Made by a program: the position numbers and the translations under genes
The notes under the pieces: generated by a model
What the model was told of the DNA's origin: nothing
What the model saw: only the letters and a program-made list of their open reading frames with translations
Databases searched by the model: none
Source of the DNA: Alphaproteobacteria bacterium
Lineage (GTDB): Bacteria; Pseudomonadota; Alphaproteobacteria; DATDPM01
Length of the DNA stretch: 64,000 nucleotides
Direction of reading: 5' to 3'
Assembly: GCA_041479345.1 (NCBI GenBank)
Contig: JBGOXX010000001.1
Location: 1,209 to 65,208 of the forward strand
In this document: positions 5,639 to 31,724 of the stretch, piece after piece
Numbering within the stretch: the first letter of the stretch is position 1
Layout: every line of letters begins with the position of its first letter

Positions 5639-5844
5639 CCGGGACTCCGGTTGGGGCAGCTCAATTTCGACGGCAAGGCCCAGATTGCCAGGAGTAGGGG
5701 GATTGCCAATGGCCCAGGCAGGCCTTCACGCTATTGTGACCTGCCGTCTCACCTTAATATTCCAAATATTCCAGGTTTTTGCGTTGCCGTTGCGCGGACG
5801 GCGAAGATCATGGTGTCATCCCGCCGGCAATAAATCGGGTTCTC

Positions 5845-6624
5845 ATGGCTAAATCCAAATCCAAGAAAAACAAACCACAGACCCAAGACTCGCTGCCTCT
5901 CGGAAACTCCGGTCCTGCCGGCCAGACAACCCCGCACCGCGGCGGCCTTGTAGGGCGGCTTCGCAACTATTTCCTCGCCGGGATCGTCGTCACGGCGCCT
6001 ATCGGCATTACCGCCTATCTGGTCTCGACTTTCGTCAGCATCGTCGACGGCTGGGTCACGCCGCTCATTCCCCCCCGTTATAGTCCCGAAACCTATCTGC
6101 CGTTCGGCATTCCTGGCTTCGGCCTGATTTGCGCCATCGTCGGCCTGATCTTGGTCGGCGCGCTGACCGCCAATGTGGTGGGACGGTTGTTGCTCCATGC
6201 CGGCGACAGGCTCATGGCCGCCATGCCGGTGGTGCGCGGCGTCTATGGTGCGGTCAAGCAATTGACCGAAACCGTGCTCGGCAAGCAATCCGCCGCCTTT
6301 CGCGAGGTGGTGCTGCTCGAATATCCGCGCCGGGGCATTTGGAGTCTCGGCTTCATCACCGGGATCACCGAAGGCGAGATTCAGGATCTGACCGAGGACG
6401 AGGTATTGAACGTCTTCGTGCCGACAACGCCCAATCCGACTTCGGGTTTCCTCCTCTTCGTGCCGCGGCGCGAACTGGTCGTTCTCGACATGTCGGTGGA
6501 AGAAGGGATCAAGATGGTCATCTCGGGTGGAATCGTAACGCCCCCCGACCGCCGTTCGGTCGAGAAGAAATCCCGTCAGCGCGGCCTTGCGGTTTCCCAT
6601 GAAGGCGGCAGCGGCCAGTCTTGA
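5845..6624 (+). CDS. DUF502 family membrane protein
   Basis: RLRNYFLAGIVVTAPIGITAYLV followed by a conserved DUF502 core (PVVRGVYGAVKQL, GIWSLGFITG, TTPNPTSGFLLFVPR). ATG at 5845; the ORF track starts earlier at 5779. Confidence 0.7.
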   Translation: MAKSKSKKNKPQTQDSLPLGNSGPAGQTTPHRGGLVGRLRNYFLAGIVVTAPIGITAYLVSTFVSIVDGWVTPLIPPRYSPETYLPFGIPGFGLICAIVGLILVGALTANVVGRLLLHAGDRLMAAMPVVRGVYGAVKQLTETVLGKQSAAFREVVLLEYPRRGIWSLGFITGITEGEIQDLTEDEVLNVFVPTTPNPTSGFLLFVPRRELVVLDMSVEEGIKMVISGGIVTPPDRRSVEKKSRQRGLAVSHEGGSGQS

Positions 6625-6634
6625 TCGGAAACAC

Positions 6635-7867
6635 TCATTCATATCGCAAGGCTTCGATCGGAAGAAGATGCGAGGCTTTGCGTGCCGGATAGAACCCGAA
6701 AAAGATTCCGACCGCCGCCGAGAACCCGACCGCAAGGAAAATGGCTTCGCCCCTAAGCTGAGTTTGCCAGCCTGCCCAATGGCCGATGGCTAGCGAGGCC
6801 GCTGCACCAAGCACAATGCCGGCCGCGCCGCCGACCAGGGAAAGCGTCGTTGCTTCAACCAGAAACTGGCTCAGGATTTCTTTGCCTCGGGCGCCGACCG
6901 CCATTCGCAACCCGATCTCCCGCGTCCGCTCGGTGACCGAGACCAGCATGATGTTCATGATTCCGATGCCGCCCACGACCAGCGATACCGAGGCGATGGC
7001 GGCCAGCAACATCGTCAAGGCGCGGGAAGAGGCCTGCTGCGCTTCCAAAATCTCGGAAAGATTGCGCAGCCAGAAGTCATCGTCTTGGCCGGGCTGAATT
7101 CGGTGCCGCTGGCGCAGCAGCAACTGAATCTGTTTCTGCGTCGCTTCGAGGTCGACGCCATTTTCCATTTTCACAAGTATAGCGCCGACGGCCCGGCGGT
7201 TTGCCTCGCTCGCCCCAAGAACCCGATTGCGCGCGGTGGTCAGCGGCATGATGACCACGTCATCCTGGTCCTGGCCTTGGAGGCTCTGGCCCTTGCGGTC
7301 GAGGATGCCGATGATGGTGAACGGAACCTTCTTGACCCGGATCATCTTTCCGACCGGATCGGTATCGCCGAAAAGCGTGTGCGCCGTGGTCTGGCCGAGC
7401 AAGGCGACTTTCGCCGCCTTTTCCAACTCGGCGTGTCCGAAGGGACGCCCCTCCACCACATCCCATTCCCGAGCCACGAAAAAATCGGGCGTCGTTCCGA
7501 ATACGACCGTTGACCAGTTGATGTCGCCATAGATGACTTGCGCGGCGCCGCGCATGCCGGGTGCGGCCACCCGGGTGCCGAACACATCGCGTTGGATGGC
7601 CAGCGCATCGTCTTCGGACAGCGTCAACTGGGTGCCGAAGCCGAGCCGAACGCCGCCGGAGGTAATGGCCCCGGACACGACGATGATGAGATTGGACCCG
7701 AGCGTGCGGATCTGGTCGGCAACCTGGGATTCGGCGCCCGATCCGACCGCAATCATCGTAATCACCGAACCAACACCGATCACGATCCCGAGCATGGTGA
7801 GCGTGCTCCGCAAGACGTTGAGCCGGAGTGCTTCCAGGGCGATGCGAATGCTGGCGAGAAGATTCAT
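6635..7867 (-). CDS. ABC transporter permease, FtsX/MacB-type (periplasmic domain plus 4 TM)
   Basis: N-terminal TM, a large periplasmic domain and a C-terminal FtsX-like TM bundle. The start overlaps the ATPase stop with an ATGA motif at 7864-7867. Confidence 0.85.
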   Translation of the reverse strand: MNLLASIRIALEALRLNVLRSTLTMLGIVIGVGSVITMIAVGSGAESQVADQIRTLGSNLIIVVSGAITSGGVRLGFGTQLTLSEDDALAIQRDVFGTRVAAPGMRGAAQVIYGDINWSTVVFGTTPDFFVAREWDVVEGRPFGHAELEKAAKVALLGQTTAHTLFGDTDPVGKMIRVKKVPFTIIGILDRKGQSLQGQDQDDVVIMPLTTARNRVLGASEANRRAVGAILVKMENGVDLEATQKQIQLLLRQRHRIQPGQDDDFWLRNLSEILEAQQASSRALTMLLAAIASVSLVVGGIGIMNIMLVSVTERTREIGLRMAVGARGKEILSQFLVEATTLSLVGGAAGIVLGAAASLAIGHWAGWQTQLRGEAIFLAVGFSAAVGIFFGFYPARKASHLLPIEALRYE

Positions 7868-15500: not shown

Positions 15501-16110
15501 CGCCGGGAATCTTTTAGGCGACGAGCAATCGGGACATATCCGGGAAGTCGGCATCGAGCTCTATCAGAGTATGCTGGAACAGGCGGTCGCCGAAGTGCGC
15601 GGCGGCGGGCAAGCGGCGGAGGAATGGACGCCGCAGATTTCGATCAGCATGCCGGTTCTCATTCCGGAAAGCTACGTGGCCGATCTTGGTGTGCGGCTTG
15701 GGCTTTACCGGCGCATCGCCAATCTTCAGGAAGAATCCGAAATCGAGGCCTTTGCCGCCGAAATGATCGACCGCTTCGGGCCACTCCCGGCCGAGGCGGA
15801 AAATCTGTTTAGCGTGGTTGCCCTGAAGCGGCTATGCCGCGACGCCAATGTCGAAAAGATCGAGGCGGGGCCCCGGGGCGCCGTGCTGACCTTCCGCGAC
15901 AATCATTTCGCCAATCCCGCCGGGCTCATCGATTTCATCGCCCGCCACGCCGGGACGGTGAAGCTGCGCCCCGACCACAAACTGGTCGTTCAGCGGACCT
16001 GGGATACCGGAACGGACCGCGCCGCAGGCTTGCGCCAAATCCTCCGCGACATTGCGGCGATTGCCGCGCGGGCCAATTCCGTGGAAAAGAAGGGAGCAAA
16101 AGTCAGTTAG
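12598..16110 (+). CDS. mfd: transcription-repair coupling factor Mfd
   Basis: 1170 aa with GDVGFGKTEVA, DEEQHFGV, a UvrB-homology N-terminus and a TRG motif region. Confidence 0.95.
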   Translation: MENLRKFFETPGRVMIAGAPEGFDAQVVSRLAKKHGAERPRPILHVAEDEARMERMAECLRFYAPGLETLTFPAWDCLPYDRVSPNGEVVARRIETLAKLAGGIGEGEPLVVVTTVSAVLQRAPPRDLFREAIFAAGLGDRLSLDDLAGYLARNGYNRADTVREPGEYALRGGIVDLFPPGSEEPLRLDLFGDAIEAIRSFDPVTQRSDKRLERFSLKPVSEVLLTEESIGRFRSGYRDLFGAARRDDLLYEAVSAGRRYSGMEHWLPLFYERIETLFDYLPDAAVTLDPNAEDAVKARLDTIADYYAARVAPSPSDGEAPYRPLPPDRLYLGEAEWADLVAPRPVGVFSPFAAPEHAAGFVDAGGRPGRDFADVRARPDANVFDALRDLLTAEAKNGRHSIVACYSDGSRERFLGLLRDHGINGATLCASWHQVGHLAKESVALVILPIEHGFAAPDAFVVTEQDILGDRLARPPRRRRHAEAFIAEASNLGEGDFVVHVEHGIGRYEGLETLDVGGAPHDCLKLIYRDGDKLYVPVESIEVLSRYGSEGSAAELDKLGGAGWQARKARVRKRIKDIADQLLRIAAARELHDAPVLTPPEGLYDEFAARFPYAETDDQLTAIADSIADLASGRPMDRLICGDVGFGKTEVALRVAFTAVMSGVQVAVVTPTTLLARQHLITFRRRFEGLPVRIGSLSRLSSATEAASVKQGLANGSVDIVVGTHALLAKDLAFRNLGLLIVDEEQHFGVVQKERLKQLRANIHVLTLTATPIPRTLQMALAGVKEMSLIATPPVDRLAVRTFVLPFDPVVVREAILREHYRGGQTFYVCPRIEDLAGVAERIKKLVPEIRIATAHGKLAARQLETVMSEFYDGKFDLLISTNIIESGLDIPSANTLIVHRADMFGLAQLYQLRGRIGRSKQRAYAYLTLPPGRVLNPTAQRRLEILHALDSLGAGFSLASHDLDIRGAGNLLGDEQSGHIREVGIELYQSMLEQAVAEVRGGGQAAEEWTPQISISMPVLIPESYVADLGVRLGLYRRIANLQEESEIEAFAAEMIDRFGPLPAEAENLFSVVALKRLCRDANVEKIEAGPRGAVLTFRDNHFANPAGLIDFIARHAGTVKLRPDHKLVVQRTWDTGTDRAAGLRQILRDIAAIAARANSVEKKGAKVS

Positions 16111-17519
16111 CGCAAACTGTGCCGGGCGCGTTCGATGAGGCTCGCCGAGGTGTCGCCGGGAACGAAGTCGGCGCAGCCGGCTTGAAGCCAAACGGTGACC
16201 GCATCCTTCCCGCCATTGATGCCGAACTGAGTATTGAGGAGCACGCCGGAAATCCTATGCGCGACAATATCGGCGTCTTCCATTGCGGTTTCGGGAAGAA
16301 CGACGCAAAACTCTTTGTCACCAACCCGCGCCACCATGTCTTCGCTACGGACCAGCACCGAAATCCATTCCGCGACTTGGCGCAGGAGATCGTTAGCGGC
16401 GGCGGCACCGAAATCGCGGGCGACCCAGGCCAGGTTCTGGACCTGGAATGAGACCAAGGACAAATGCTTGCGCCAGGATGTGGACGCGGAAATCAAGCGA
16501 TCGAGATGAGCGAGCAAAAAGTCGCGGCCATAGACGCCGCCGGCCTCATGGATACCGGCCTTGCTCTGAATAGCCGCCAATTGATCGCGGATCGAAAGCC
16601 GCAGCTTTTGACGGTGCACCAGGGATTCGATCGCGGTATGAATTTCGGTTTGATCGAGCGGGCGAAGAATCAAGACGCTGGCGCCGCTCATATAAGGTTC
16701 TTCCACGCTGTCGAAAGCGCCGCGGTCGGCGATCAACAGGGCCGGAAGATTGAAAAGCCGGGTGTTGTTACGAATTTGGCCGCAGAGATAGAGCGCGTCT
16801 TCCGCATTGCCATCGATGACGATGACCAGGGCGTCATAGGATTCGCGATGGAGGAGGGATGCCGCGGCAAAAACATCCGGCGCGGTCACGAGGTCGAAAT
16901 CGCGACCGAGCGCTTTTTTGACATCGTCCAATTCTCGGTTGGCCGCCCCGGTGACGAGGATACGGCTGACTTCACCGGCCCGTGGCGCCGCAATCTTGCC
17001 GTCGATCTTCAAACCGAGAGCGCGGGCGGTGGCAATCCGATGCTCCAATTCCGTCCGCATGATCGCAAGCCGCACCAGCGGCTTGAGACGCAGAAGCAAG
17101 ATCGTCTCGCTGAAGGGTCCGATGACGACGTCATCGACGCCGGCATTCAGGGCCCGCCGCCGAAATGCCGGGGGAGCCAGTTCCGCCACCATGACGACGG
17201 GAATATGGGCGGTCTCGCCGCTCTTGAGGGAATGGGCAAGTTTGACGGCTTTTTCGCCGCCATCGCTGGCATCGATGAGAGCCAGGTCCGGATGTTCGTC
17301 CCGGCCCAGCTTGCGGGCGGTGACCGAGAAATCGCTGGCGGACGTGGCGTAACCCTGGCCGCGCAGCATTTTGGCAAGCTGACGCGCGCGGTTTTGGTCT
17401 TCGCTCAAAATCAAGATACGGGCGAGGCAGGCACCCGCAACCGCGGGCGCATTCGCGACGGTGCTGCGCGATGCTCCTTCACACGGAGTAAGACCGTCCG
17501 ATTTTCCCCAGAGACCCAT
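16107..17519 (-). CDS. PleD/PopA-like response regulator: REC-REC-GGDEF with a degenerate A-site
   Basis: Two receiver domains followed by a GGDEF fold. The active-site motif reads RVGDKEF instead of GG(D/E)EF, while an RxxD I-site (RSED) is kept 5 residues upstream. ATG at 17519. Confidence 0.8.
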   Translation of the reverse strand: MGLWGKSDGLTPCEGASRSTVANAPAVAGACLARILILSEDQNRARQLAKMLRGQGYATSASDFSVTARKLGRDEHPDLALIDASDGGEKAVKLAHSLKSGETAHIPVVMVAELAPPAFRRRALNAGVDDVVIGPFSETILLLRLKPLVRLAIMRTELEHRIATARALGLKIDGKIAAPRAGEVSRILVTGAANRELDDVKKALGRDFDLVTAPDVFAAASLLHRESYDALVIVIDGNAEDALYLCGQIRNNTRLFNLPALLIADRGAFDSVEEPYMSGASVLILRPLDQTEIHTAIESLVHRQKLRLSIRDQLAAIQSKAGIHEAGGVYGRDFLLAHLDRLISASTSWRKHLSLVSFQVQNLAWVARDFGAAAANDLLRQVAEWISVLVRSEDMVARVGDKEFCVVLPETAMEDADIVAHRISGVLLNTQFGINGGKDAVTVWLQAGCADFVPGDTSASLIERARHSLR

Positions 17520-18343: not shown

Positions 18344-19453
18344 TTGCGGCATCGTGCCGCAATCGCGATAAGGCGGGCCACGACCGTGGCGGTTGCAGAC
18401 GTACTCACATCGCGCCGCATTTCCGCGGGCGCGGGAATTTCGCCGGAACCCGGATGGTTGACGCGCGGCCTCATTGCGCTCGACCGCCCCGGCCTGATCG
18501 CCGCCGTCAGCGTCGTCTCCATCGTCTTTTCGGAAATTATCGCAGGCATCATCAGCCTCACGATGCAGGGCACGATACCGGCGGTCGTCGTGGTAGCCGC
18601 CATCGTGACGCCGGGCATCGTGGCGCCGCTGGCGTCACTGCTGCTGGTCGCCGTCATCGATCACTTGAAACGTGAGGTCGACGACCGGAAGCGCGCCGAA
18701 GATGCGCTACGAATGGCCATTGAGATGGCCGAGCAGGCCAATCGCACGAAATCGACCTTTCTGGCCAATACCAGCCACGAATTGCGGACGCCGCTCAATG
18801 CCGTCATCGGCTTTTCCGATATGATTCGGGACGGCATGGGCAGCGGCGTTTCCTCCGACAAGCTGATCGAATACGCAACTCACATCAACGACTCCGGCCG
18901 TCATCTGCTGGCCGTGCTCAATGACATTCTCGATCTTTCAAAAGTTGAGGCCGGCAAGGTCGACCTCTTCGAGGAAGAAATCAATGTGGGCGCGATCATT
19001 CGCTCCTCCACGGCCCTGATGCGCGAGCGCGCCGATCACGGTTCCGTCGTGTTGGCGGCGGAGGTGCCGACAACCTTGCCGATGCTGTGGGCGGATCCCC
19101 GCAAACTCCGGCAGGTTCTGTTGAACCTGCTCTCGAACGCGATCAAATTCACCGCCGCCGGCGGCCAAGTGACGGTGGAAGCCGTCGCCGATTCGACCGG
19201 CGCCGTTTTCATTTCGGTGGCCGACACCGGCATCGGCATTGCCGCCAAGGATATCGCGCTGGCGCTTGCCCCCTTCAGCCAAGTCGACAGCGCACTCAAT
19301 CGCAAATTCGAAGGAACAGGGCTCGGTCTTCCCCTTGCCAAGGCCCTGGTCGAACTTCATCAAGGCCGGTTCGAGTTGGAAAGCGAGCCGGGCGTGGGGA
19401 CGACCGTCACCATATCGTTTCCGGCGGCGCGCGCCCGCCAGCGCGCGGCGTAA
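18344..19453 (+). CDS. membrane-bound sensor histidine kinase (HisKA + HATPase_c), PleC/DivJ/CckA-like core
   Basis: Two TM helices are followed by the H-box [24 protein letters not shown]1/G2 boxes and GTGLGLPLAKALVELHQG. The start is uncertain: TTG at 18344, with no early ATG. Confidence 0.85.
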   Translation: MRHRAAIAIRRATTVAVADVLTSRRISAGAGISPEPGWLTRGLIALDRPGLIAAVSVVSIVFSEIIAGIISLTMQGTIPAVVVVAAIVTPGIVAPLASLLLVAVIDHLKREVDDRKRAEDALRMAIEMAEQANRTKSTFLANTSHELRTPLNAVIGFSDMIRDGMGSGVSSDKLIEYATHINDSGRHLLAVLNDILDLSKVEAGKVDLFEEEINVGAIIRSSTALMRERADHGSVVLAAEVPTTLPMLWADPRKLRQVLLNLLSNAIKFTAAGGQVTVEAVADSTGAVFISVADTGIGIAAKDIALALAPFSQVDSALNRKFEGTGLGLPLAKALVELHQGRFELESEPGVGTTVTISFPAARARQRAA

Positions 19454-19579: not shown

Positions 19580-19792
19580 TTAGTCGGCAGGTCCGAGATC
19601 GACGGCCTTTGCACCGCGCGGCTCGTTCAGCACTTGGTAGGTCACGCGTTGACCTTCCATGAGCGAGCGCATGCCTGCACGTTCGACGGCCGTGATATGG
19701 ACGAACACATCCTTATCGCCCTGACCGGCGTCTGGGGTGATGAAGCCGTAGCCCTTGGTGGCATTGAACCACTTAACTGTTCCGGTAGCCAT
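19580..19792 (-). CDS. cspA: cold-shock protein, CspA family
   Basis: 70 aa with GTVKWFNATKGYGFITPD and the RNP motifs KGYGFI / VFVHI. Confidence 0.9.
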   Translation of the reverse strand: MATGTVKWFNATKGYGFITPDAGQGDKDVFVHITAVERAGMRSLMEGQRVTYQVLNEPRGAKAVDLGPAD

Positions 19793-20092
19793 GATTACTC
19801 CTTAATTTAACAAACAACAAAAACGCCGGCCGAGAGCGGCCGACGTTGTACGGGTCTCACAATTTCGGGAAGTAACCAGGCTAGGCCGGTTAGCTTTTAT
19901 GCATGGGCTCTGGAGCACGGTACGCCGATAACTTGTGTGACTTCGGGCCTTATATGGGCGGTTCTTTGCCGCCGCGCAACAAAAATCGACGATTATTAAC
20001 CGAGAACACCACAAGAACTCCCCGGGAAATCTGCGATTCGCGCGGGTAGCGGCGGGTTTCGCAAGAGCGTATGATTTTGGTGACGAGGGGCC
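19793..20092. promoter_or_regulatory. 300-bp divergent leader/promoter region, probably a long cspA 5' UTR
   Basis: Non-coding gap between the cspA start (19792) and the divergent CBS gene (20093). Cold-shock genes typically carry long structured 5' UTRs. Only spurious antisense ORFs cover it. Confidence 0.4.
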
Positions 20093-20536
20093 ATGAAGCA
20101 CAGAACCGTTTCGGAATTTGTGCGCGACCAAGTCGTCGCCGAACTTCCCCCCACCGCCACGGTGCGGGAAGCGGTTAGACTCATGGCCGACCGCCATATC
20201 GGCGCCGTCACGGTCACCGAAACGGGACGTCTGTCCGGCATCTTTACCGAACGCGACATGGTGAGCCGGGTCGCGGCACCGGGAAAGGACCCCGACCGCA
20301 CCACGCTCGCCGCCGTCATGACCGGGCATCCCCAGACGATTGCCGCGGATGCCTCGACCATCGAGGCTCTCCGGATAATGCAGGCGGGCGGGTTCCGTCA
20401 TTTGCCGGTCGTACATCACGGCAAACTTGTCGGCGTCTTGTCCTTGCGTGATTTCACCGGCACCGATTTGATCGAGATCGAACGCGCCTCCGATATCGAG
20501 CGGGCGGTGGCCGAAGGCGGGATACTCCACGACTGA
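20093..20536 (+). CDS. CBS domain-pair protein
   Basis: ATG at 20093 with a GACGAGGGG Shine-Dalgarno. Two CBS motifs are present (HIGAVTVTE...LSGIFTERD and RHLPVVHHGKLVGVLSLRD). Confidence 0.85.
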   Translation: MKHRTVSEFVRDQVVAELPPTATVREAVRLMADRHIGAVTVTETGRLSGIFTERDMVSRVAAPGKDPDRTTLAAVMTGHPQTIAADASTIEALRIMQAGGFRHLPVVHHGKLVGVLSLRDFTGTDLIEIERASDIERAVAEGGILHD

Positions 20537-20650
20537 CCGCCGGCCGCGGCTCGCCGGCTCCGCCGTTTTTCCTAATATTTCAATAAAATCCGCCGCCTCC
20601 AAATCAGGCAGTTTGTCTGCACATTAACGGCATCTTTACCGTCCGGAACG

Positions 20651-22903
20651 ATGATCCGCTGGGGGCAGACGCTCCGGCATCCCCCACAGGGTCCGGGGCC
20701 AGGCAGACGAGACGTTAACGTGCGAAAACAAACCGCGGAGCTCCGCGAAAATATCCGGGAGCCGGCTGATGCAGCCGCGCTCCCCATCGGTGTTCCGGAT
20801 TCATCGGCGGCCATGGCGGGCACCGAACGGATTCGCGACTTCGCGGAACTGGCCTCCGAATGGTTTTGGGAGACCGGGCCGGACCTCCGCTTTACCTTTC
20901 TGTCGGAGCGCTTCGAACAGATCACCGGACTTTCTCGCGACTCGGTCCTCGGCCATACCATCCTTGAAGCCGCCCGTGCCGATCTGCGCGATCCGCGTTG
21001 GCAGCGCCATCTTGAAGATTTCTTAGCTCAGCGCCCGTTTCACGATTTCCAATTCGCGACCCAGCTGCCATCCGGAGAAACCCGGCAGTTGCGGGTCAAC
21101 GGCAAGCCCTACCACGATACCCAGGGACGGTATCTCGGCTATCGCGGAACCGGTTCCGATGTGACCGATTCCGAGCGCACTCATGAAAGCCTGTTTGCGG
21201 TCAAAGCGCGGCTCGAACATCTGCTCAACACCAGCCCCGCGATGATCTACAGCTTCAAGGCAGGCGACAATCACGCCGCGACGTTTGCCAGTAACAACAT
21301 CAAGACACAGCTCGGCCACGACCCCCACGAATTCCTCGACGACCCCGGATTCTGGACTCAGCACATCCATCCCGAGGATGCGCCGCGCGTGTTCGCCGAT
21401 ATGGCGAAGTTGTTCAAAAACGGCCGCCATTCTCAAGAATACCGGTTCCGTCACAAGGACGGCAGCTACCGTTGGATGCGCGACGAGTTGGTTCTCGTCG
21501 AAGACAATGACGGAACACCGTTGGAGGTTGTCGGCTATTGGGTCGACATCACCGACCGCAAGCGGGCCGAAGAGGCAGTCCGGGAGAGCGAAAAGGCGCT
21601 GAAGCGGACGAACCGCGCCCTGCAAGCCGTCAGCGAATGCAACGAGGCGCTGGTTCGAATCACCAACGAATCGGAACTCTTGCGCGAGGTGTGCCGTATC
21701 ATCGTCCAATCCCGCAATCATCGTATGGCTTGGGTCGGCCTGACGGAAAATGACGAGGCAAAGACGGTCAGGCCCGCCGCGAACTGGGGTTCGGACGACG
21801 GCTATCTGAGCGAAATCAAGGTGAGTTGGGACGATCACGCGAAGGACCTGGGCCCGGTCGCCCGCGCGATCGTGACCGGCAAGCCTTATGTCGTCCGGGA
21901 CACGGCGAGCGATTCGAATTTCGCGGCGTGGCGCGACGCGGCCTTGAAGCGCGGATTCCTTTCGGTCATCGCCCTGCCGCTGCAAGTCAACGATCGGCCG
22001 ATCGGCTGCTTGGCCATTTATGCGCCCGCCTCCGATGCCTTCGATGACGTGGAAGTCAGGCTCTTGGCCGGCCTCGCCGACAATCTCGCCTATGGCATTT
22101 CCACGATCCGGACGCGCGCCGACCGGGCCCGGGCCGAAGACGCCGTCCGGGAATATGCCGAAAAGCTCGAACGAAGCAATCGCGAGCTCCAGGATTTCGC
22201 CTATGTGGCATCGCACGATCTTCAGGAGCCGCTGCGGAAGATCGAAGCCTTCGGCGACCGGCTCAAAACGAAATGCTCCAGTACTCTTGGCGAAGACGGT
22301 CAGCTTTACCTCGATCGCATGCAACGCGCATCCGCGCGCATGCGGGCTCTGATCAATAGCTTGCTCACCTATTCCCGCATCACGACGAAAGCTCAACCCT
22401 TCGAAGTCCTGAACTTGACCGAGGCGGCGAAGGACGCGGCGTCCGATCTTCAGATGCGCATCGAGAAAGAAAACGGGCGTGTCGAAATCGCCGACATGCC
22501 GACGATCGATGCCGATGCGACGCAAATGCGGCAGCTCTTCCTCAACCTGATCGGCAACGGCCTCAAATTCCATAAGGCGGAGGAAGCCCCGGTCGTTCGC
22601 GTTTCGGCCGAACTCTGCGGCCGCGACGGCGGCCCGATCGACGGCGCCGATCCGCAGGATCAGTGGTGCCGCATTGCCATCGCCGACAACGGAATCGGCT
22701 TCGACGAAAAATACACCCACCGAATCTTCAGCATGTTTCAGCGGCTGCATGGCCGCAACGAATACGAAGGCACGGGGATCGGACTTGCGACCTGCCGCAA
22801 AATTGTCGAGCGGCATGGTGGCTCGATCACCGCCAAGACGGCGCCTGGAATGGGTGCCACGTTCATTGTGCTAGTTCCGGCACGTCAGGCCCATAAGGAG
22901 TAA
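20651..22903 (+). CDS. PAS-PAS-GAF sensor histidine kinase (phytochrome-type HisKA with the ASHDLQEPLR H-box)
   Basis: PAS repeats, a GAF domain, the H-box YVASHDLQEPLRKI, and an HATPase_c region (IADNGIGFDEKYTHRIF, GTGIGLATCRKIVERHGG). An alternative start lies at 20813. Confidence 0.85.
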   Translation: MIRWGQTLRHPPQGPGPGRRDVNVRKQTAELRENIREPADAAALPIGVPDSSAAMAGTERIRDFAELASEWFWETGPDLRFTFLSERFEQITGLSRDSVLGHTILEAARADLRDPRWQRHLEDFLAQRPFHDFQFATQLPSGETRQLRVNGKPYHDTQGRYLGYRGTGSDVTDSERTHESLFAVKARLEHLLNTSPAMIYSFKAGDNHAATFASNNIKTQLGHDPHEFLDDPGFWTQHIHPEDAPRVFADMAKLFKNGRHSQEYRFRHKDGSYRWMRDELVLVEDNDGTPLEVVGYWVDITDRKRAEEAVRESEKALKRTNRALQAVSECNEALVRITNESELLREVCRIIVQSRNHRMAWVGLTENDEAKTVRPAANWGSDDGYLSEIKVSWDDHAKDLGPVARAIVTGKPYVVRDTASDSNFAAWRDAALKRGFLSVIALPLQVNDRPIGCLAIYAPASDAFDDVEVRLLAGLADNLAYGISTIRTRADRARAEDAVREYAEKLERSNRELQDFAYVASHDLQEPLRKIEAFGDRLKTKCSSTLGEDGQLYLDRMQRASARMRALINSLLTYSRITTKAQPFEVLNLTEAAKDAASDLQMRIEKENGRVEIADMPTIDADATQMRQLFLNLIGNGLKFHKAEEAPVVRVSAELCGRDGGPIDGADPQDQWCRIAIADNGIGFDEKYTHRIFSMFQRLHGRNEYEGTGIGLATCRKIVERHGGSITAKTAPGMGATFIVLVPARQAHKE

Positions 22904-22908
22904 CCTCG

Positions 22909-23376
22909 ATGAAAGCCAATGGAAAACCCATCATCATCCTGATGGCGGATGATGATTCCGACGACCGCATGCTGGTCAAGGACGCGTTCGAAGAAAGCCG
23001 CCTCAACAACGATTTGCACTTCGTCGAGGACGGCGAGCAGCTCATCGATTACCTGTACCGTCGCGGAAATTTTGCCCACCTCAAGGGCCAGCCTTATCCG
23101 GGCCTCATCCTTCTCGACCTCAACATGCCGAAGAAAGACGGACGCGAGGCCTTGGCGGAAATCAAGAGCGATCCGGACCTACGCCGCATCCCGATCGTGA
23201 TTCTGACGACCTCGCGGGCGGAAGAAGACATTCTGCGGACCTACGATCTCGGCGCGAACTCCTTCATCACCAAGCCGGTGACGTTCGAAAGCCTGGTTCA
23301 GGTGGTGCAGGTTCTCGGCAATTATTGGGTCGAGATCGTCGAGCTTCCTTCGATCTGCGCGCCGGCGGCCGCGTAA
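22909..23376 (+). CDS. single-domain response regulator (CheY/Rcp1-like receiver)
   Basis: ATG at 22909 is preceded by the AAGGAG Shine-Dalgarno at 22895-22900. Receiver motifs are ILMADDDSDD, ILLDLNMPKKDG and a T...K pattern. Confidence 0.9.
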   Translation: MKANGKPIIILMADDDSDDRMLVKDAFEESRLNNDLHFVEDGEQLIDYLYRRGNFAHLKGQPYPGLILLDLNMPKKDGREALAEIKSDPDLRRIPIVILTTSRAEEDILRTYDLGANSFITKPVTFESLVQVVQVLGNYWVEIVELPSICAPAAA

Positions 23377-23397
23377 ACCAAACCGATAACCGAACCG

Positions 23398-24597
23398 ATG
23401 CCGGCCGCACCCATCCGCATCCTGCTCGTTGAGGACGATGAGGACGATTACCTCATCACCCGCGATCTCCTGTCCGAGATCGCGGACGTCCAATACGACA
23501 TCAAATGGGCGCCGACGTTCGACGACGGTTTGGCCGCACTTGACTGCGACGCCGACAGCCCGCCGACCTTTGACATTTGCTTGATCGATTACCGGCTCGG
23601 CGAAAAGAGCGGCATCGATCTGCTGCGCACGACCGTTCAGCGCGGATGCCTGATGCCGGTCATTTTGCTGACCGGGGCCGGCGACCGGGATATCGATATG
23701 GCGGCGATGGAAGCCGGCGCCGCGGACTTCCTCGACAAGACGACGTTGACCGCCCCGTTGCTGGATCGTTCGATCCGTTATGCGATCGCCCAGTCACGGG
23801 ATCGCCGGGCGCTGATCGAGAAATCCCATTCGCTGTCTTCGGCGAAGGAACAAGCCGAGATCGCCAATCGCGCCAAGTCGGAATTCCTCGCCAATATGAG
23901 TCACGAGCTGCGCACGCCGCTCAACGCCATCATCGGGTTTTCCGAGATCATGAAGGACGAGCTCTCGGGACCGATCAACAATCCCTATTACCGCGAATAT
24001 GTGCGCGACATTTACGCCAGCGCCAACCATCTGCTCGAAGTCATCAACGACATCCTCGACGTGTCGAAGGTCGAAGCCGGCAAAATCGAGCTTCAGGAAT
24101 CGCCGGTCGAAATCGATTCGACGATTCAAGCGGCGGTGCGGCTGGTCATCGAGCGCGCCCGCGAAGCCGATATCCGCGTCGATGTGACTTTGCCGCAGCC
24201 CTTGCCCCGGCTTTACGCCGATGCCCGCCGCGTCAAGCAGATGATGCTCAATTTACTGTCGAACGCCGTGAAATTTACGCCGGCGGGCGGAAGCGTCAAA
24301 GTCAACGCCCATGCCGACGATACCGGGCTTTCGATCTCGGTGGCCGATACCGGCATCGGCATCGCCGAAGACAAGATCGCGCTGGTCTTCACGCCGTTCG
24401 CGCAAGTCGACGGTTCGTTGAAGCGCCGCTATGAAGGCACCGGCCTCGGCTTGTCGCTAACCAAGGGATTGATCGAGATGCATGGCGGAACGATCGTGAT
24501 GGAAAGCGCGCCGGGGCAGGGGACCACGGTCACGCTGTGGTTCCCCCGTGAGCGCCTGGTTTCCGAAACGGCAGTCCCGGCGGCGCGCACCGCGTAA
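23398..24597 (+). CDS. hybrid REC-HisKA-HATPase histidine kinase (N-terminal receiver)
   Basis: Receiver domain ([10 protein letters not shown]...LIDYRLG) followed by the H-box [21 protein letters not shown] and an HATPase_c region [18 protein letters not shown]. Confidence 0.9.
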
Positions 24598-24661
24598 CGC
24601 CGGTACTGCCATATCCAACGCTTGAGGGTTCCCGGCCCTCGCGCCGTTGAAAGGACGGCAA

Positions 24662-26593
24662 ATGGCCCATTCCGGCTACGATGTCATGGCGAACTTCGCC
24701 GACGCGCAATCGACGGAACCATTTGGCGCGCTCTTCGACAACGACTTCCAGCCGATGCTCCTGATCGACCCGGAAACGACGGCGATCGTCGACGCCAACA
24801 GCGCAGCCTGCGCATTTTACGGGTACAGCCGAGCCGAGTTCGTCCGTCTCAAGAAGACGAACATCAACGTGGCGCCGGAATCCGAGATAAGAGACCTGGT
24901 CAAGAACGCGGTCGTGGGCCACCACACGCGATCTCAACTCCAACATCGTCTGGCCAATGGCGATATCCGCGACGTCGAAGACTGGATCGGGATCGTCGCC
25001 GTCGGCCGGCGGCAACTGCTCTGCTCGATCGTCCGGGACGTCACGGACCAGCGGCGCACCGAAGCGGCGTTGCGGGCGAGCCAGGTGATGCTCGCCACGG
25101 CCGAGCGCATCGCCCAAGTCGGCAGCTGGGATTGGGATATTGCTGGAAATACCTTGGTCTGGTCCGAGGAACAGTGCCGCTTGTTCGGCTACGCGCCGGA
25201 GGACTTCAACGAAAAGTACGAAGGCTGGATGGTGTGCATCCATCCCGACGACCGGAAACGCGTGCAGGAGGCGATCGACGCCGCGGTGGCCGGCCAGAAG
25301 GTCTACGACATCGAATATCCGATCATCGGCCCGGGCGGCACCAAGCGATTCATTCACGCCAGAGGCGAAGTGTTCCAGGACAAGGACGGCAAATCGGTTC
25401 GCATGGTGGGGACCTGCCACAACATTACCGAGCGCCGGTCCGCCGAGGAAACGCTCCGTCAATCGCAAAAGCTCGAATCGGTCGGCCAATTGACCGGCGG
25501 CATCGCCCACGATTTCAACAATCTGCTGGGTGTCATTATCGGCAATCTGGACCTGATCCTCGACCGGAGGAAGCTCGACGCCGGTCTCAAAAAATTAGTC
25601 CAGGCCGCCCTCGATGCCGCGTTGCGCGGCGGCGATCTCACCCAGCGCCTGCTCGCGTTTTCGCGCAAGCAAACCCTGCAATCCAAAGTCATTTATCTCG
25701 GCGAGCGGTTGATTCAGGCCGGCACCTTGTTGCGGCGGACGCTGGGCGAGCAGATCACCGTGAAGGTCCGCGCCGCACCCGATCTCTGGCCCGTGGTCGC
25801 GGATTCCTCGCAAATCGACAATGTGATTCTCAATTTGGCGATCAATGCCCGCGACGCGATGCCCAAAGGCGGGGCCATCACCATCGACGTGTCCAATGTC
25901 CGGTTCGACGCGGACTATGCCGCCCGGAATGTCGAAGTCATTTTGGGCGATTACGTCCTTCTTGCCGTCACCGATACCGGCGAGGGCATGCCGCCGGACG
26001 TGCTCGAGCGCGTCTTCGAGCCGTTTTTCACGACCAAAGAGGTCGGCAAGGGATCGGGTCTTGGCCTCAGCATGGTCTACGGCTTCGTCAAGCAATCGAA
26101 CGGGCACATCAAGATCGAGAGCGCGGTTGGCCACGGCACGAGTGTGAACATCTACTTGCCGCGCGCCGCTGCGGCCGCCGCCGCCGAGGCGGCGCCCGAA
26201 AATCGAAATGTGAATCTATCCGCCAATGGCGAAGTGATCCTGGTGGTCGAAGACAATGACAGCGTGCGCGCCGTCGCCGTCAATCAACTGGCCAGTCTCG
26301 GCTATCGGACGTTGAAGGCGGAAAGCGGCGAAGCGGCTCTCGCCTTGCTCGACAAGCATCCCGAAATCGATCTGATGTTCTCGGACGTGGTCATGCGCGG
26401 CGGAATGAACGGCTATGAGCTGGCGCTCGAAGCCTGCAAGCGCCGCCCCGGCCTCAGGGTTCTTCTGACCTCCGGCTGTGAAATGAAATCCGCCGACGGC
26501 CTCGACGGTGTCGAGAAATTCGAACTGCTGAAAAAACCCTATCGCAAGCGCGATCTCGCCCAAATGCTCTGCCACCTTCTGGCGCTGAATTAG
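24662..26593 (+). CDS. PAS/PAC sensor hybrid histidine kinase with a C-terminal receiver
   Basis: ATG at 24662 with an AAGGA Shine-Dalgarno; the ORF track starts at TTG 24647. Two PAS/PAC domains, the H-box [14 protein letters not shown], HATPase_c, and a C-terminal REC ([11 protein letters not shown]...[13 protein letters not shown]). Confidence 0.85.
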
Positions 26594-26637: not shown

Positions 26638-26727
26638 TGGCGGATGGGGTGAGATTTGAACTCACGGAACCCTTGCGGGTTCTCCGGTTTTCAAGACCGG
26701 TGCCTTAAACCGCTCGGCCACCCATCC
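26638..26727 (-). tRNA. tRNA-Ser (anticodon TGA), type II with a long variable arm, CCA encoded
   Basis: Reverse strand: GGATGGG acceptor / CCCATCC, D-arm GCCGAGCGGTTTAAGGC, anticodon stem CCGGT/ACCGG with loop CTTGAAA (UGA anticodon), an 18-nt variable arm, T-arm GTGAG TTCAAAT CTCAC, discriminator G and CCA. Confidence 0.85.
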
Positions 26728-28933: not shown

Positions 28934-29133
28934 GCTGGGTCTCCCTGATTGATGGGTGCATGCGCCGGCATTACCGGGGCTGCCTATAGACCGGTGCCGC
29001 CCGGCCTTCATTCCATAGCCTTCAATTTCCGGGCCTTTATCGGACCCGGCCGAGCGGTCGGTTAAGGCCGTTTAACAAACCGTATACCTATTTGCTGTCT
29101 AATCGAGGGCGTTTCCAGCCACTCCAAAAGGCC

Positions 29134-30366
29134 ATGATTTCTGCCCGTTCCGTCACACCAGGCTACGCCGAACTTGCCGGCGGGACGCCGCTGAACGACT
29201 GGACGACGCCGGCGGCGGCGCTTGGCCCGCAATCGACCTGCGCGGAAGCTTCCGATGTCTTTTCCGAAAACCCCGAGCTGACGGCGCTCGCCGTTGTCGA
29301 CGGCTCCCGAATCGTCGGCCTCGTGACCCGCAGCGAGCTGTTCGCGGCGCTTTCCGACCGGTTCGCGGTCGCCGCGGCGGCCGACGAGCCGGTCGCAAAA
29401 ATTATGAATCGCCGGCCCCTCGTTATCGAAGCGAGCTGCGATTTTGAAAAACTGATCGACATGGTCGCATCCAAACGCTCCGACGCCTTCGCCGCCGGAT
29501 TTATCGTGACGCAAAACGGCGTCTATCGCGGCATCGGGGTCGTCCGATTGCTGATGGGTGCCGCCGCCGACCGGCTCGCCCAGCGGCATACCGAAATCCA
29601 GCGCGCACAGATGGAAGCCGAGCAGTCGAGCAAGAGCAAGGCGCAATTCCTTGCCGCGGTCAGTCACGAACTGCGCACGCCCTTGAACGCCATCATTGGA
29701 TTTTCGCAGATCATTGCCGAAGGCACTTTCGGTCCGAATGACTTCGAACGCTATCGCGGCTATGCCGCGGATATTCAAAATAGCGGCGAGCATCTGCTGG
29801 AGATCATCAACGACATTCTCGATATCTCCAAAATCGAATCCGGCAAATTGGTCTTGCACGAGGAATTCCTGGACATCGAACCTCTCGTCGACGTCACGCT
29901 GCGCCTGGTGCGCCAACGCGCCTTGGAAAATCAGGTGGCGCTCGCCGTTCAGGTCGGTGGGCCGCCCTTCCGCCTGCGCGGCGACAAGCGGTTGCTTCGC
30001 CAGCTCCTGCTGAACCTTGTCGCCAACGCCGTAAAATTCACGCCCCCCACCGGCAAGGTGACGGTCTCCGCCCATCGAACACCGGATGGCGGTTTGTCCG
30101 TCGTCGTCGAAGATACCGGCATCGGAATCGCCAGCGAAGACATCCCGAAGGCGATGATGCCATTCGGGCAAGTGGATAGCCGGTTGGGACGCAAATACGA
30201 AGGCACCGGGCTCGGCCTTCCGTTGGCCAAGGCAATGGCGGAAGCCCATGGCGGTACGCTCAAATTGGAAAGCCAGCTCGGCGTTGGAACGATGGTGACG
30301 GTGCGGCTGCCCGCCGAACGCTTGATCGAATTGCCGGAAGACGGACTCGGGAGCGAAGCGGTATGA
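29134..30366 (+). CDS. cytoplasmic CBS-domain sensor histidine kinase
   Basis: ATG at 29134 with an AAAGG Shine-Dalgarno; the ORF track starts at TTG 29092. An N-terminal CBS pair precedes the H-box [21 protein letters not shown] and HATPase_c GTGLGLPLAKAMAEAHGG. No TM segment. Confidence 0.85.
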   Translation: MISARSVTPGYAELAGGTPLNDWTTPAAALGPQSTCAEASDVFSENPELTALAVVDGSRIVGLVTRSELFAALSDRFAVAAAADEPVAKIMNRRPLVIEASCDFEKLIDMVASKRSDAFAAGFIVTQNGVYRGIGVVRLLMGAAADRLAQRHTEIQRAQMEAEQSSKSKAQFLAAVSHELRTPLNAIIGFSQIIAEGTFGPNDFERYRGYAADIQNSGEHLLEIINDILDISKIESGKLVLHEEFLDIEPLVDVTLRLVRQRALENQVALAVQVGGPPFRLRGDKRLLRQLLLNLVANAVKFTPPTGKVTVSAHRTPDGGLSVVVEDTGIGIASEDIPKAMMPFGQVDSRLGRKYEGTGLGLPLAKAMAEAHGGTLKLESQLGVGTMVTVRLPAERLIELPEDGLGSEAV

Positions 30367-31724
30367 GCCATCGGCCGATCGCCGCCATTCTGCAAATTGC
30401 GGCAGTCGCCGCGATCACCATCCTCGCAACGGAATCGTCGGTGGGCGCCGAATCGTCGATTCTCGATTACGACAGCGGCGGCCATCTACGGAAATTGCAC
30501 GACGTGGCGCCCGAAACGCCGCGCACATCCGGCCAGACCCAATCCGGACAGACCCAATCCGGACAAGCGTCCGACGCGGCGGCGGCCCCGGAATTCGACC
30601 CCGACACATGGTTCGAGCCGGATCAGGTGCTGATCGCCAATCCCCCGGCAAATTTCGAGGATACGGTCAGGTTCGAAGGCTTCCACGTTCTCCAAAAGGT
30701 GCCGCTCAAAGCCCTGGCGATGGAGGTCTGGCGCGTCCACACCCCCGATAAGATCGGCGTCGGCGATGCGGTTGCCCAGCTGCGGCAGGAATTCCCGGGT
30801 TTACTTGTCGATGCCGATCACCTCTACCGGCAAAGCGCTGGACCGGCCTCTGCGGCGACGGCGAGTCAAGCGCGGGCGATCATCGGCTGGAGCGATCTCG
30901 ATCCCGGCTGCGGCACCGGCATCAAGATCGGCATGGTCGATACGCCGGTTGATGTGACCCATCGCGCCTTGGCCGGTCAGAAAATCGTCTATCGCTCCTT
31001 CATTCTGCCCTCACGCACACCGGCACCGGCCGATCATGGAACCGCCATCGCCGCGATGCTGGTCGGCAAGCCGGGAAATGACGGCTTCGGCGGTCTCTTG
31101 CCGGGGGCGGAGCTGCTGGCCGGGAATATCTTCACCTTCAACGATCAGGGCGCTGAAATGGCCGATGTGGTGGCACTTCTGCGCGCCCTCGACTGGCTGA
31201 CCGCCGAGAAAGTACAGGTCGTGAATCTCAGCATGGCGGGCGCCGACAATCAGCTGATGCACCATGTGGTCGAGCAAGCGGGGGCCCGCGGCATGGTCCT
31301 CGTGGCCGCGGTCGGCAATTGGGGCACGACCGACCGGCCGGCCTATCCGGCGGCCTATGCCCAGGCCATCGGGGTTACCGCCGTCGACGCCAACGACTCT
31401 ATTTATTCCTATGCAAACCGCGGTTCCTATGTCGCCTTTGCCGCACCCGGCGTCCAGATCTGGACCGCGGTGCCGGGGGGCGGCCGGTTCCAAAGCGGAA
31501 CATCGTTCGCGGTGCCTTATTTGACGAGCGTCATTGCGACCGAAATGGCGGCGGGGCGGGCACCTTCGGCCGAACGCATTCGCGACCTCCTGAGTCACGA
31601 AGCGGTCGATCTCGGCCCGCCGGGCAAGGACAATACTTTCGGTTGGGGGCTCATCAGAACGCCGCCTTTGTGCAACCAAGGCGGCGCGCCGCAGAATCCC
31701 GATGCGGCCGATGCCGCTCACTAA
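30363..31724 (+). CDS. secreted S8-family serine peptidase (subtilisin-like)
   Basis: A signal peptide precedes the Asp region GMVDTPVD, His DHGTAIAAML, oxyanion Asn VVNLSMAG and Ser GTSFAVPY. The start overlaps the kinase stop (ATGA, 30363-30366). It contains an SGQTQSGQTQSGQ micro-repeat. Confidence 0.85.
   Translation: MSHRPIAAILQIAAVAAITILATESSVGAESSILDYDSGGHLRKLHDVAPETPRTSGQTQSGQTQSGQASDAAAAPEFDPDTWFEPDQVLIANPPANFEDTVRFEGFHVLQKVPLKALAMEVWRVHTPDKIGVGDAVAQLRQEFPGLLVDADHLYRQSAGPASAATASQARAIIGWSDLDPGCGTGIKIGMVDTPVDVTHRALAGQKIVYRSFILPSRTPAPADHGTAIAAMLVGKPGNDGFGGLLPGAELLAGNIFTFNDQGAEMADVVALLRALDWLTAEKVQVVNLSMAGADNQLMHHVVEQAGARGMVLVAAVGNWGTTDRPAYPAAYAQAIGVTAVDANDSIYSYANRGSYVAFAAPGVQIWTAVPGGGRFQSGTSFAVPYLTSVIATEMAAGRAPSAERIRDLLSHEAVDLGPPGKDNTFGWGLIRTPPLCNQGGAPQNPDAADAAH

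Follow-up and report, generated by a model that had tools for sequence, protein, structure and literature searches.

A putative three-gene signalling cassette of sensor kinase with phytochrome-type transmitter, Rcp1-type receiver and receiver-kinase in Alphaproteobacteria

Five co-directional genes, four of two-component signal transduction and one for a CBS-domain protein, were analysed in a stretch of 64,000 nt (hereafter the window; positions 1,209 to 65,208 of contig JBGOXX010000001.1, assembly GCA_041479345.1, Alphaproteobacteria bacterium) with a G+C content of about 61%. They encode, in this order, a stand-alone CBS-pair protein, a sensor histidine kinase (HK1), a small single-domain receiver, a kinase with an N-terminal receiver (REC-kinase) and a CckA-like hybrid kinase (Table 1). 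An earlier inspection of the letters without any search (the sequence-only reading) had taken all five genes as one operon encoding a multi-step phosphorelay. Comparison with related loci points instead to the middle three genes as the conserved unit, for which a branched two-tier kinase cascade is proposed here. All five open reading frames (ORFs) were recovered at the coordinates given in that reading, and Pfam returned every domain named in it. The phospho-acceptor histidines and the Asp/Thr/Lys residues of the receivers are intact throughout the five genes, and hydropathy analysis yielded no hydrophobic segment in any of the five proteins.

Table 1: Features of the window considered in this study, in order of position.
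Feature	Position	Strand	Basis or remark
PleD-like REC-REC-GGDEF protein	16107-17519	minus	full-length alignment with PleD, 1e-33
Membrane-anchored kinase, two transmembrane segments	18344-19453	plus	Pfam, translation, hydropathy
Cold-shock protein gene, upstream boundary	19580-19792	minus, divergent from CBS gene	sequence reading; CSD protein in L081, L082, L087, L090
Stand-alone CBS-pair protein, 147 aa	20093-20536	plus	Pfam CBS E 1.9e-23
Conserved non-coding block TTAACGGCATCTTTACCGTCCGG, 23 nt	20625-20647	plus	~75 nt 5' of likely HK1 start
Sensor histidine kinase HK1 (longest ORF 750 aa)	20720-22903, longest ORF from 20651	plus	Pfam PAS, PAS_3, GAF_2, HisKA, HATPase_c
GAF module, 567 nt in frame, residues 305-493 of 750-aa ORF	21563-22129	plus	alignment to relatives' kinases
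Rcp1-type single-domain response regulator, 155 aa	22909-23376	plus	Pfam receiver E 5.5e-20
REC-kinase, 399 aa	23398-24597	plus	Pfam REC 8-117, HisKA 159-228, HATPase_c 275-385
CckA-like hybrid kinase, 643 aa	24662-26593 (longest ORF from 24647)	plus	Pfam PAS, PAS_3, HisKA, HATPase_c, REC
tRNA-Ser(UGA), downstream boundary	26638-26727	minus, convergent	ARAGORN and Rfam
CBS-HisKA-HATPase_c kinase	29092-30366	plus	Pfam

The closest relative of the window is contig JBGQMZ010000022.1 of an uncultured alphaproteobacterial metagenome-assembled genome (MAG; GCA_041500845.1, L087), which is 99.85% identical across 21.9 kb, followed at the nucleotide level by L081 with 94%, L090 with 87%, and L001 (an Alphaproteobacteria MAG) together with L082/L083 with about 77%. 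Searches for exact copies of the kinase (750 aa) and of the small receiver (155 aa) gave no match; between the window and the public record there are slight differences, and the record places the start of the kinase elsewhere. In NCBIfam no protein of the locus reached any ortholog cut-off. Within the close clade the succession mfd, PleD-like gene, gene for a peptidoglycan-binding protein, membrane kinase, cold-shock gene (csp), CBS gene, sensor kinase, receiver and REC-kinase is syntenic, and three elements vary: the GAF domain of the sensor kinase, the hybrid kinase, and a gene that in one lineage intervenes between CBS gene and sensor kinase.

Two gene starts were corrected. For HK1 the most likely start is GTG 20720, because it aligns with the start codons of the relatives and ATG 20651, which opens the longest ORF, is ATC in L082; ATG 20651 moreover falls inside the region of the conserved non-coding block, and the public record starts HK1 at ATG 20813. 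For the hybrid kinase ATG 24662 is most likely the start, since the resulting 643-aa product is identical to the public protein P0121 and AAGGA precedes this ATG by 6 nt. Although short intergenic gaps of 6-115 nt had been read at first, with these starts the gaps amount to at least 183, 5, 21 and 64 nt, the first of them, behind the CBS gene, having been taken as 115 nt.

Loci comparable to this one were recovered with the REC-kinase as anchor from species-representative genomes and assemblies, and the resulting census comprises 11 loci (window/L087, L090, L081, L001, L082/L083, L084, L002, L003, L085, L086, L091 and L092, with L002 and L003 near-identical). In every one of them, at REC-kinase identities of 45-100%, the sensor kinase is followed by a single receiver some 150 aa long and then by the REC-kinase. 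In the six distant trios, i.e., L002 with the near-identical L003, L084 (Pelagibius), L085 (Rhodospirillaceae SYSU D60014), L086, L091 and L092, the REC-kinase is only 45-50% identical, the flanks are wholly different, the reading frames overlap or nearly do so, and the first kinase carries other sets of sensor domains. The first kinase and the receiver are separated by -4 to +14 nt across the loci, which fits translational coupling of the two. Invariant across loci are the H-box of the first kinase, FA(Y/S)VASHDLQEPLR, and likewise that of the REC-kinase. REC-kinases of 33-38% identity on Azospirillum and Trichormus replicons do not stand in trios and thus mark the lower bound of the cassette family. 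Judged by this synteny, three genes at approximately 20720-24597 make up the functional unit, a cassette confined to the trio because the CBS gene and the hybrid kinase occur only in close relatives, whereas the trio is kept across unrelated flanks. The synteny is also the reason why the gene arrangement is not considered accidental; the promoter and terminator scans give no support here, as the signals of the sigma-70 promoter and terminator scans remained at shuffle background, with no intrinsic terminator between the five genes.

The outer two genes behave differently from the trio. The CBS gene adjoins csp in L001, L081, L082, L087 and L090, it is present in none of the distant trios, and in L082/L083 a 286-aa gene is placed between it and the sensor kinase. 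The non-coding block in front of HK1 recurs with its exact pattern in L001, L081, L087 and L090, thus down to 77% identity, in a spacer that is otherwise unalignable, and a degenerate copy in L082 adjoins HK1 and not the CBS gene. The block is therefore a candidate promoter or operator of the trio as far as its conservation indicates, although it matches neither the sigma-70 nor the EcfG consensus; a match to the EcfG-type general-stress promoter motif was likewise absent near the locus. Behind the CBS gene lies a hairpin, the stability of which resembles that of shuffled sequence (z-score 0.57). The CBS gene is probably a neighbour with its own transcription unit, so that its assignment to the operon was given up.

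The same applies to the hybrid kinase, for which the reading as a PAS kinase with C-terminal receiver was borne out by Pfam. A weaker PAS domain lies upstream of PAS_3, His283 is situated in AHDFNNLL, and the receiver has Asp575, Thr603 and Lys625. A match to PF10090 is below cut-off and inside the ATPase domain, and is not counted as an Hpt domain. The gene was found only at nucleotide identities of at least 87% (L081, L087, L090), the corresponding position lacks a hybrid kinase in L001 and L082, and a 74% homolog in L089 stands isolated among genes for hemerythrin, GerE and radical-SAM proteins. Their distribution marks both CBS gene and hybrid kinase as neighbours specific to the lineage and not as obligate parts of the system, and the proposed five-gene operon is not supported, as only its middle three genes are kept together in 11/11 loci.

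HK1 is a soluble kinase according to hydropathy (no transmembrane segment). Its H-box had been recognized correctly in the sequence-only reading as FAYVASHDLQEPLRKI, with His522 in the 750-aa ORF as phospho-acceptor, and in the wider form FAYVASHDLQEPLR it belongs to the SHD(L/M)QEP transmitter type. The assignment of H-box and kinase core to the phytochrome type was confirmed as well, inasmuch as kinase domains of bacteriophytochromes match the transmitter at 1e-31 to 5e-29 and HK853 follows at 7.5e-23; against PDB 8f71 the transmitter core reaches 1.8e-52. A photosensory PAS_2-GAF-PHY core was not detected in HK1, for which Pfam gives PAS, PAS_3, PAS_4, PAS_9 and GAF_2 and neither PAS_2 nor PHY. 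In the 94% relative L081 the sensor kinase (5321-7505) is called as an ORF of 82 aa and a protein of 604 aa that starts within the first PAS domain; the probable cause is a frameshift or faulty assembly in that record.

The small receiver directly follows this kinase, as had been noted with reference to Cph1-Rcp1 systems, with a gap of 5 nt here and the same pairing in 11/11 loci. The AAGGAG described as its ribosome binding site is present at 22895-22900, where it overlaps the final two sense codons of HK1, 8 nt before ATG 22909. The active site (Asp70, Thr100, Lys122) is intact and the C-terminal tail reads YWVEIVELP. In a phmmer search of PDB sequences the receiver matched 5te9 (7.4e-40), Rcp1 (1.7e-35), RcpA (8.8e-33), RPA3017 (4zyl; 1.4e-31), RcpB (7e-28) and 6xvu (5.7e-27), after which the values drop to about 1e-12 for PleD and about 1e-11 for CheY. 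By these matches it clearly belongs to the phytochrome-associated Rcp1-type class and is less close to CheY.

The third gene of the trio encodes the kinase with receiver input that had been read behind the small receiver (Pfam). Its receiver contains Asp64, Thr92 and Lys114, which together with Asp13 are invariant among 17 orthologs, and orthologs of like architecture are abundant. The transmitter (His169) is of the classical HisKA type (Pfam 7.8e-22), with HWE_HK and HisKA_2 not found by Pfam, and among solved kinases the core is nearest to GacS (7z8n, 8.5e-51) and HK853 (4e-44). Cysteines occur only at positions 50, 61 and 84, all of them within the receiver. That the REC-kinase might be PleC/DivJ-like and feed the adjacent PleD-like protein was considered and set aside, because its core is equally close to LuxQ, TorS, BarA, PdhS and DivJ in NCBIfam and because the PleD-like protein has a degenerate receiver as well as GDKEF in place of GGEEF.

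The input half of HK1 contains a module that is present or absent as a whole. The GAF segment sits between DITDRK and RAEDAVRE and is flanked by a direct repeat of 34 nt (21552-21585 and 22119-22152), the two copies of which are 82% identical and spaced by 567 nt, in frame. The sensor kinases of L001 and L082 lack exactly this segment, and the DNA alignment to both picks up again exactly at 22130. Judged from these borders, the GAF boundaries are the footprint of a domain gain or loss via recombination in the 'DIT' linker helix of the PAS domain, and the polarity could be either a gain in the lineage of the window or a repeat-mediated loss in the relatives. An AlphaFold 2 model (predicted local distance difference test score 93.7) displays a canonical GAF fold between two long helices. 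With the segment as query no PDB sequence matched below E 0.1, and the neighbours retrieved by fold search were generic GAF domains of all ligand types with 10-20% identity, among which phytochromes were not preferred and no ligand-specific neighbour appeared. The earlier statement that bilin-binding hallmarks are missing from this GAF domain held: the domain has just three cysteines (330, 348, 453), located in the N-terminal helices and in a beta strand, neither Cys nor His occurs in the model's helix between residues 120 and 131 (FAAWRDAALKRG), the bilin position is devoid of both, and PHY and PAS_2 are absent. Neither the conserved Cys/His (or N-terminal Cys) of bilin-binding GAF domains nor sequence similarity to phytochrome GAF domains was found.

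An indication of how the three proteins might be connected comes from segments that change together. The helix after the H-box of HK1 and helix 1 of both receivers, the small one and that of the REC-kinase, fall jointly into two classes. In class A (window, L090, L001, L082, L084) HK1 has RKIEAFGDRL ('...EPLRKIEAFGDRL') and helix 1 of the small receiver reads DDSDDRMLVKDAF; in class B (L002, L003, L085, L086, L091, L092) HK1 shows '...EPLRM(V/I)xSYCQLL', the small receiver NPGDARLTxEAL and the REC-kinase receiver NPGDARLTRELL, helix 1 being nearly identical between the two receivers of this class. The REC-kinase's own DHp helix is unchanged between the classes. The receiver halves of 17 REC-kinase orthologs share 41-78% identity inside a class and 27-38% across the two, whereas the transmitter halves display no class split (57% between the window and class B, 50% between the window and the class A proteins P0067/P0073). 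These helices form the contact surface between kinases and receivers. Because they switch jointly and the REC-kinase DHp does not, both receivers appear matched to HK1, and the simplest reading would have the REC-kinase transmitter matched to something else, conserved and unlinked.

On these grounds a branched two-tier cascade is proposed, in which HK1 would feed both receivers and the gated REC-kinase would signal to an unlinked regulator; we regard this as rather probable, though far from certain. HK1, a soluble kinase with PAS-PAS-GAF input and a phytochrome-type transmitter, would autophosphorylate at His522 and donate the phosphoryl group to Asp70 of the small receiver as well as to Asp64 of the REC-kinase receiver. 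The phosphorylation state of the latter would turn the ATP-dependent autokinase activity at His169 up or down, for which the joint class switch of receiver helix 1 and the HK1 DHp is the one, indirect support, and the REC-kinase in turn would act on a regulator encoded elsewhere. The small receiver might serve as a competing phosphate sink or provide a second, protein-binding output. Domains, intact catalytic residues, conservation of the trio and joint switching are observed here; each phosphotransfer in this scheme, the direction of the gating, the signal perceived and the output are what we infer. The term His-Asp-His-Asp relay, which had been used for the locus, is inappropriate, since the five genes and about 30 further ORFs, a part of those in the window, yielded no Hpt domain, and since there is precedent for a REC-kinase receiver that gates ATP-driven autophosphorylation without transferring its phosphoryl moiety to the histidine (PMC3899027).

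Several observations weigh against the branched cascade. The wiring of the trio, at this locus as in the orthologs, is read from sequence alone, and the two classes may go back to no more than one or two events in the evolution of the 11 related loci, so that the joint switching, seen with just two classes, is suggestive without being statistical. Between the REC-kinase receiver of the window and the small receiver the overall identity amounts to only 23%, and among solved structures the former lacks a close relative (best E 1.4e-08). A candidate for the output regulator was not found among the ORFs of the window that were scanned, the receiver of the PleD-like protein being degenerate. Finally, the hybrid kinase is co-directional and follows the REC-kinase after 64 nt with no terminator between them, so that co-transcription or cross-talk with the trio is possible in the lineage of the window.

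These latter features, extended to all five genes, whose gaps range over 5-183 nt with no intrinsic terminator detected between them, are also what speaks for a single operon and a single multi-step relay in which all members exchange phosphoryl groups, CBS protein and hybrid receiver included. All five genes stand in this order in L081, L087 and L090 as well, but these are close relatives with 87-99.9% nucleotide identity, and beyond them the grouping dissolves: the ~77% relatives have no hybrid kinase at this place, one lineage has a gene between CBS gene and HK1, the distant trios have neither outer gene, and the 74% homolog of the hybrid kinase is isolated. As, in addition, the ORFs scanned yielded no Hpt domain and the hybrid receiver resembles neither the class A nor the class B pattern in its helix 1, this explanation seems improbable. 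The opposite extreme, a chance grouping of independent two-component genes in a region rich in signalling genes, could draw on the five kinases within 12 kb and on the 33-38% REC-kinases (Azospirillum, Trichormus) outside trios, yet it would have to account for 11/11 loci (45-100% identity) in which the trio persists between unrelated flanks, its frames overlapping or nearly so, and is therefore considered extremely unlikely. For the trio it is largely refuted by synteny, whereas for the CBS and hybrid-kinase genes it is effectively favoured.

Two further possibilities retain the trio and differ in its wiring. In a linear chain HK1 would phosphorylate the receiver of the REC-kinase only, and the REC-kinase would pass the phosphoryl group to the small receiver as terminal output, in a way resembling ExsG and ExsF. 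ExsG indeed phosphorylates the single-domain receiver ExsF (PMC3899027), and near the cassette no intact stand-alone receiver other than the small one was found; but this receiver is of the Rcp1/AgR type, a class phosphorylated by phytochrome-type kinases, and AgR is not phosphorylated by ExsG (PMC3899027). Moreover, helix 1 of the small receiver switches class at a constant REC-kinase DHp, which would be unexpected for a cognate pair, and the linear chain is accordingly judged unlikely. Alternatively, the REC-kinase might be controlled without phosphorylation of its own receiver, which would be a docking or pseudo-receiver module, the REC-kinase being bound, for example, by the phosphorylated small receiver or by HK1 in the manner of multikinase networks. 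Such an arrangement gains some plausibility from Rhodopseudomonas palustris, where the action of BphP2/3 on LhfE is unresolved (PMC6879726), and from the kinase-kinase regulation documented for RetS/GacS (PMC8498467, PMC5992135). It is hard to reconcile with a receiver in which all phosphorylation residues (Asp13, Asp64, Thr92, Lys114) are kept, invariant in 17 orthologs, and whose helix 1 follows the class of HK1, and we hold it to be quite improbable.

The branched cascade has close parallels in systems studied before. In Agrobacterium tumefaciens agp1, agR and exsG form one operon (PMC1552090), and in the corresponding cluster of Rhizobium NT-26 BphP1 phosphorylates both AgR and Asp62 of ExsG, by which the autokinase of ExsG is inhibited, while ExsG passes its phosphate to another receiver that is neither AgR nor itself (PMC3899027). 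The gene order of sensor kinase, Rcp1-type receiver and kinase with N-terminal receiver as well as the phytochrome-type transmitter of the first kinase are shared with the cassette, and the dual phosphorylation there agrees with the joint switching here. The REC-kinase resembles ExsG in its N-terminal receiver and kinase core and in its place as third gene after sensor kinase and small receiver. Differences are found in the input, which is PAS-PAS-GAF in the window and other PAS sets in orthologs instead of PAS_2-GAF-PHY, in the type of the second kinase, which is classical HisKA in the cassette and HWE in ExsG (the type that makes ExsG hexameric), and in the lack of a second, ExsF-like receiver encoded near the cassette.

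In the bphP2/3-lhfD-lhfE system of R. palustris LhfD can be dispensed with and serves as a sink for phosphate, and the output of the REC-kinase LhfE runs via the separate regulator LhfA (PMC6879726). With its sensor kinase(s), BphP2/BphP3, a single receiver, LhfD/Rpa3017, and a REC-kinase, LhfE/Rpa3018, it presents the wiring proposed for the cassette, the sensor of which, in contrast, is no phytochrome and next to which no LhfA-like REC-HTH regulator is encoded. Furthermore, LhfE requires the redox-sensitive Cys262, whereas the REC-kinase has no cysteine beyond position 84 (LhfE being compared by description and not by alignment). Cph1-Rcp1 of Synechocystis and CphA/B-RcpA/B have in common with the cassette the SHDLQEPLR H-box, a translationally coupled Rcp1-type receiver and its tail (F/Y)W..(I/T)V.LP, but are photoreceptors of two genes, while the cassette is devoid of a bilin module and has the REC-kinase as conserved third gene. 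Likeness to CckA is restricted to the hybrid kinase (5idj 7.7e-54; NCBIfam Brucella CckA model E 2.9e-115), which scores 386 and 305 bits with the NCBIfam CckA models against a cut-off of 1000 and has no transmembrane segment; as opposed to CckA-ChpT-CtrA, no ChpT or Hpt was found near it, and the gene is missing at this position in the ~77% relatives. The best reading of these comparisons would be that the cassette works like Agp1-AgR-ExsG and BphP-LhfD-LhfE and belongs to none of the three families phytochrome, ExsG (HWE) and CckA.

Thus, the output half of phytochrome systems, i.e., SHDLQEPLR transmitter, Rcp1-type receiver and receiver-gated kinase, also seems to circulate as a fixed cassette behind sensors that are not photoreceptors, in uncultured Alphaproteobacteria. 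The joint switching of three interaction surfaces amounts to a concrete prediction of wiring, which could help to settle how the first kinase acts on the REC-kinase in the Lhf system of R. palustris, and the presence or absence of a GAF domain bounded by repeats is a tidy natural case of sensor-domain shuffling. The result is a useful correction of annotation; it offers no new mechanism and does not overturn current understanding. A wider picture, which we put forward only tentatively and do not consider likely in full, would take the trio as a widespread, input-swappable cassette that re-uses the phytochrome output module for signals other than light, with one sensor kinase driving two receivers that co-evolve, with three inputs, namely the REC-kinase and two neighbouring paralogous kinases sharing its transmitter specificity, converging as a multikinase network on one unlinked regulator, and with the GAF module as an exchange of sensor domains at the PAS 'DIT' linker.

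These two kinases and the PleD-like protein, all within about 4 kb, had been overlooked in the sequence-only reading, the set of five genes of which stood. With the transmitter of the REC-kinase those of the membrane kinase and the CBS-kinase share 53% and 48% identity, respectively (BLASTP), and the H-box is the same in all three; a role of both as co-inputs to the regulator of the REC-kinase is speculative. An origin of the stand-alone CBS protein as paralog of the CBS domain of the CBS-kinase was rejected on comparison. The PleD-like protein, which is syntenic in L001, L082 and L087, has GDKEF for GGEEF, and in its first receiver Lys is replaced by Gly and Thr by Ala. To judge from these residues, the protein is probably a non-canonical relative devoid of catalytic activity, and it is unlikely to be a conventional target because of the altered GGEEF motif and the missing receiver lysine.

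Downstream of the REC-kinase the relatives differ strongly in gene content. In L001 the 9 kb between REC-kinase and tRNA-Ser are occupied by patatin, metallo-beta-lactamase, cyclase-TPR and AbiGi genes, in L082 GFA and Mur-ligase-like genes take the position of the hybrid kinase, and in L081 a phage-type integrase and genes of unknown function lie just past the hybrid kinase, at the place where the tRNA is expected. In the window the hybrid kinase is the sole occupant of this variable slot, which is bordered by tRNA-Ser(UGA), the sole match of the Rfam scan, and which looks like an integration hot spot. A fourth gene after the REC-kinase was also observed in L091 (7288-8451), where it encodes a PAS_7-HisKA-HATPase_c kinase; this suggests that extra kinases were repeatedly added downstream of the cassette in different lineages.

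At the other end of the locus, the cold-shock gene possesses a long 5' leader (19580-19960 in total, minus strand), in which a strong hairpin at 19822-19847 was flagged by the terminator scan; it is probably a structure of the leader rather than a terminator. Beyond the tRNA, the CBS-kinase is followed by a gene for an S8 peptidase (30363-31724), and this pairing is kept in L082, L087 and L090.

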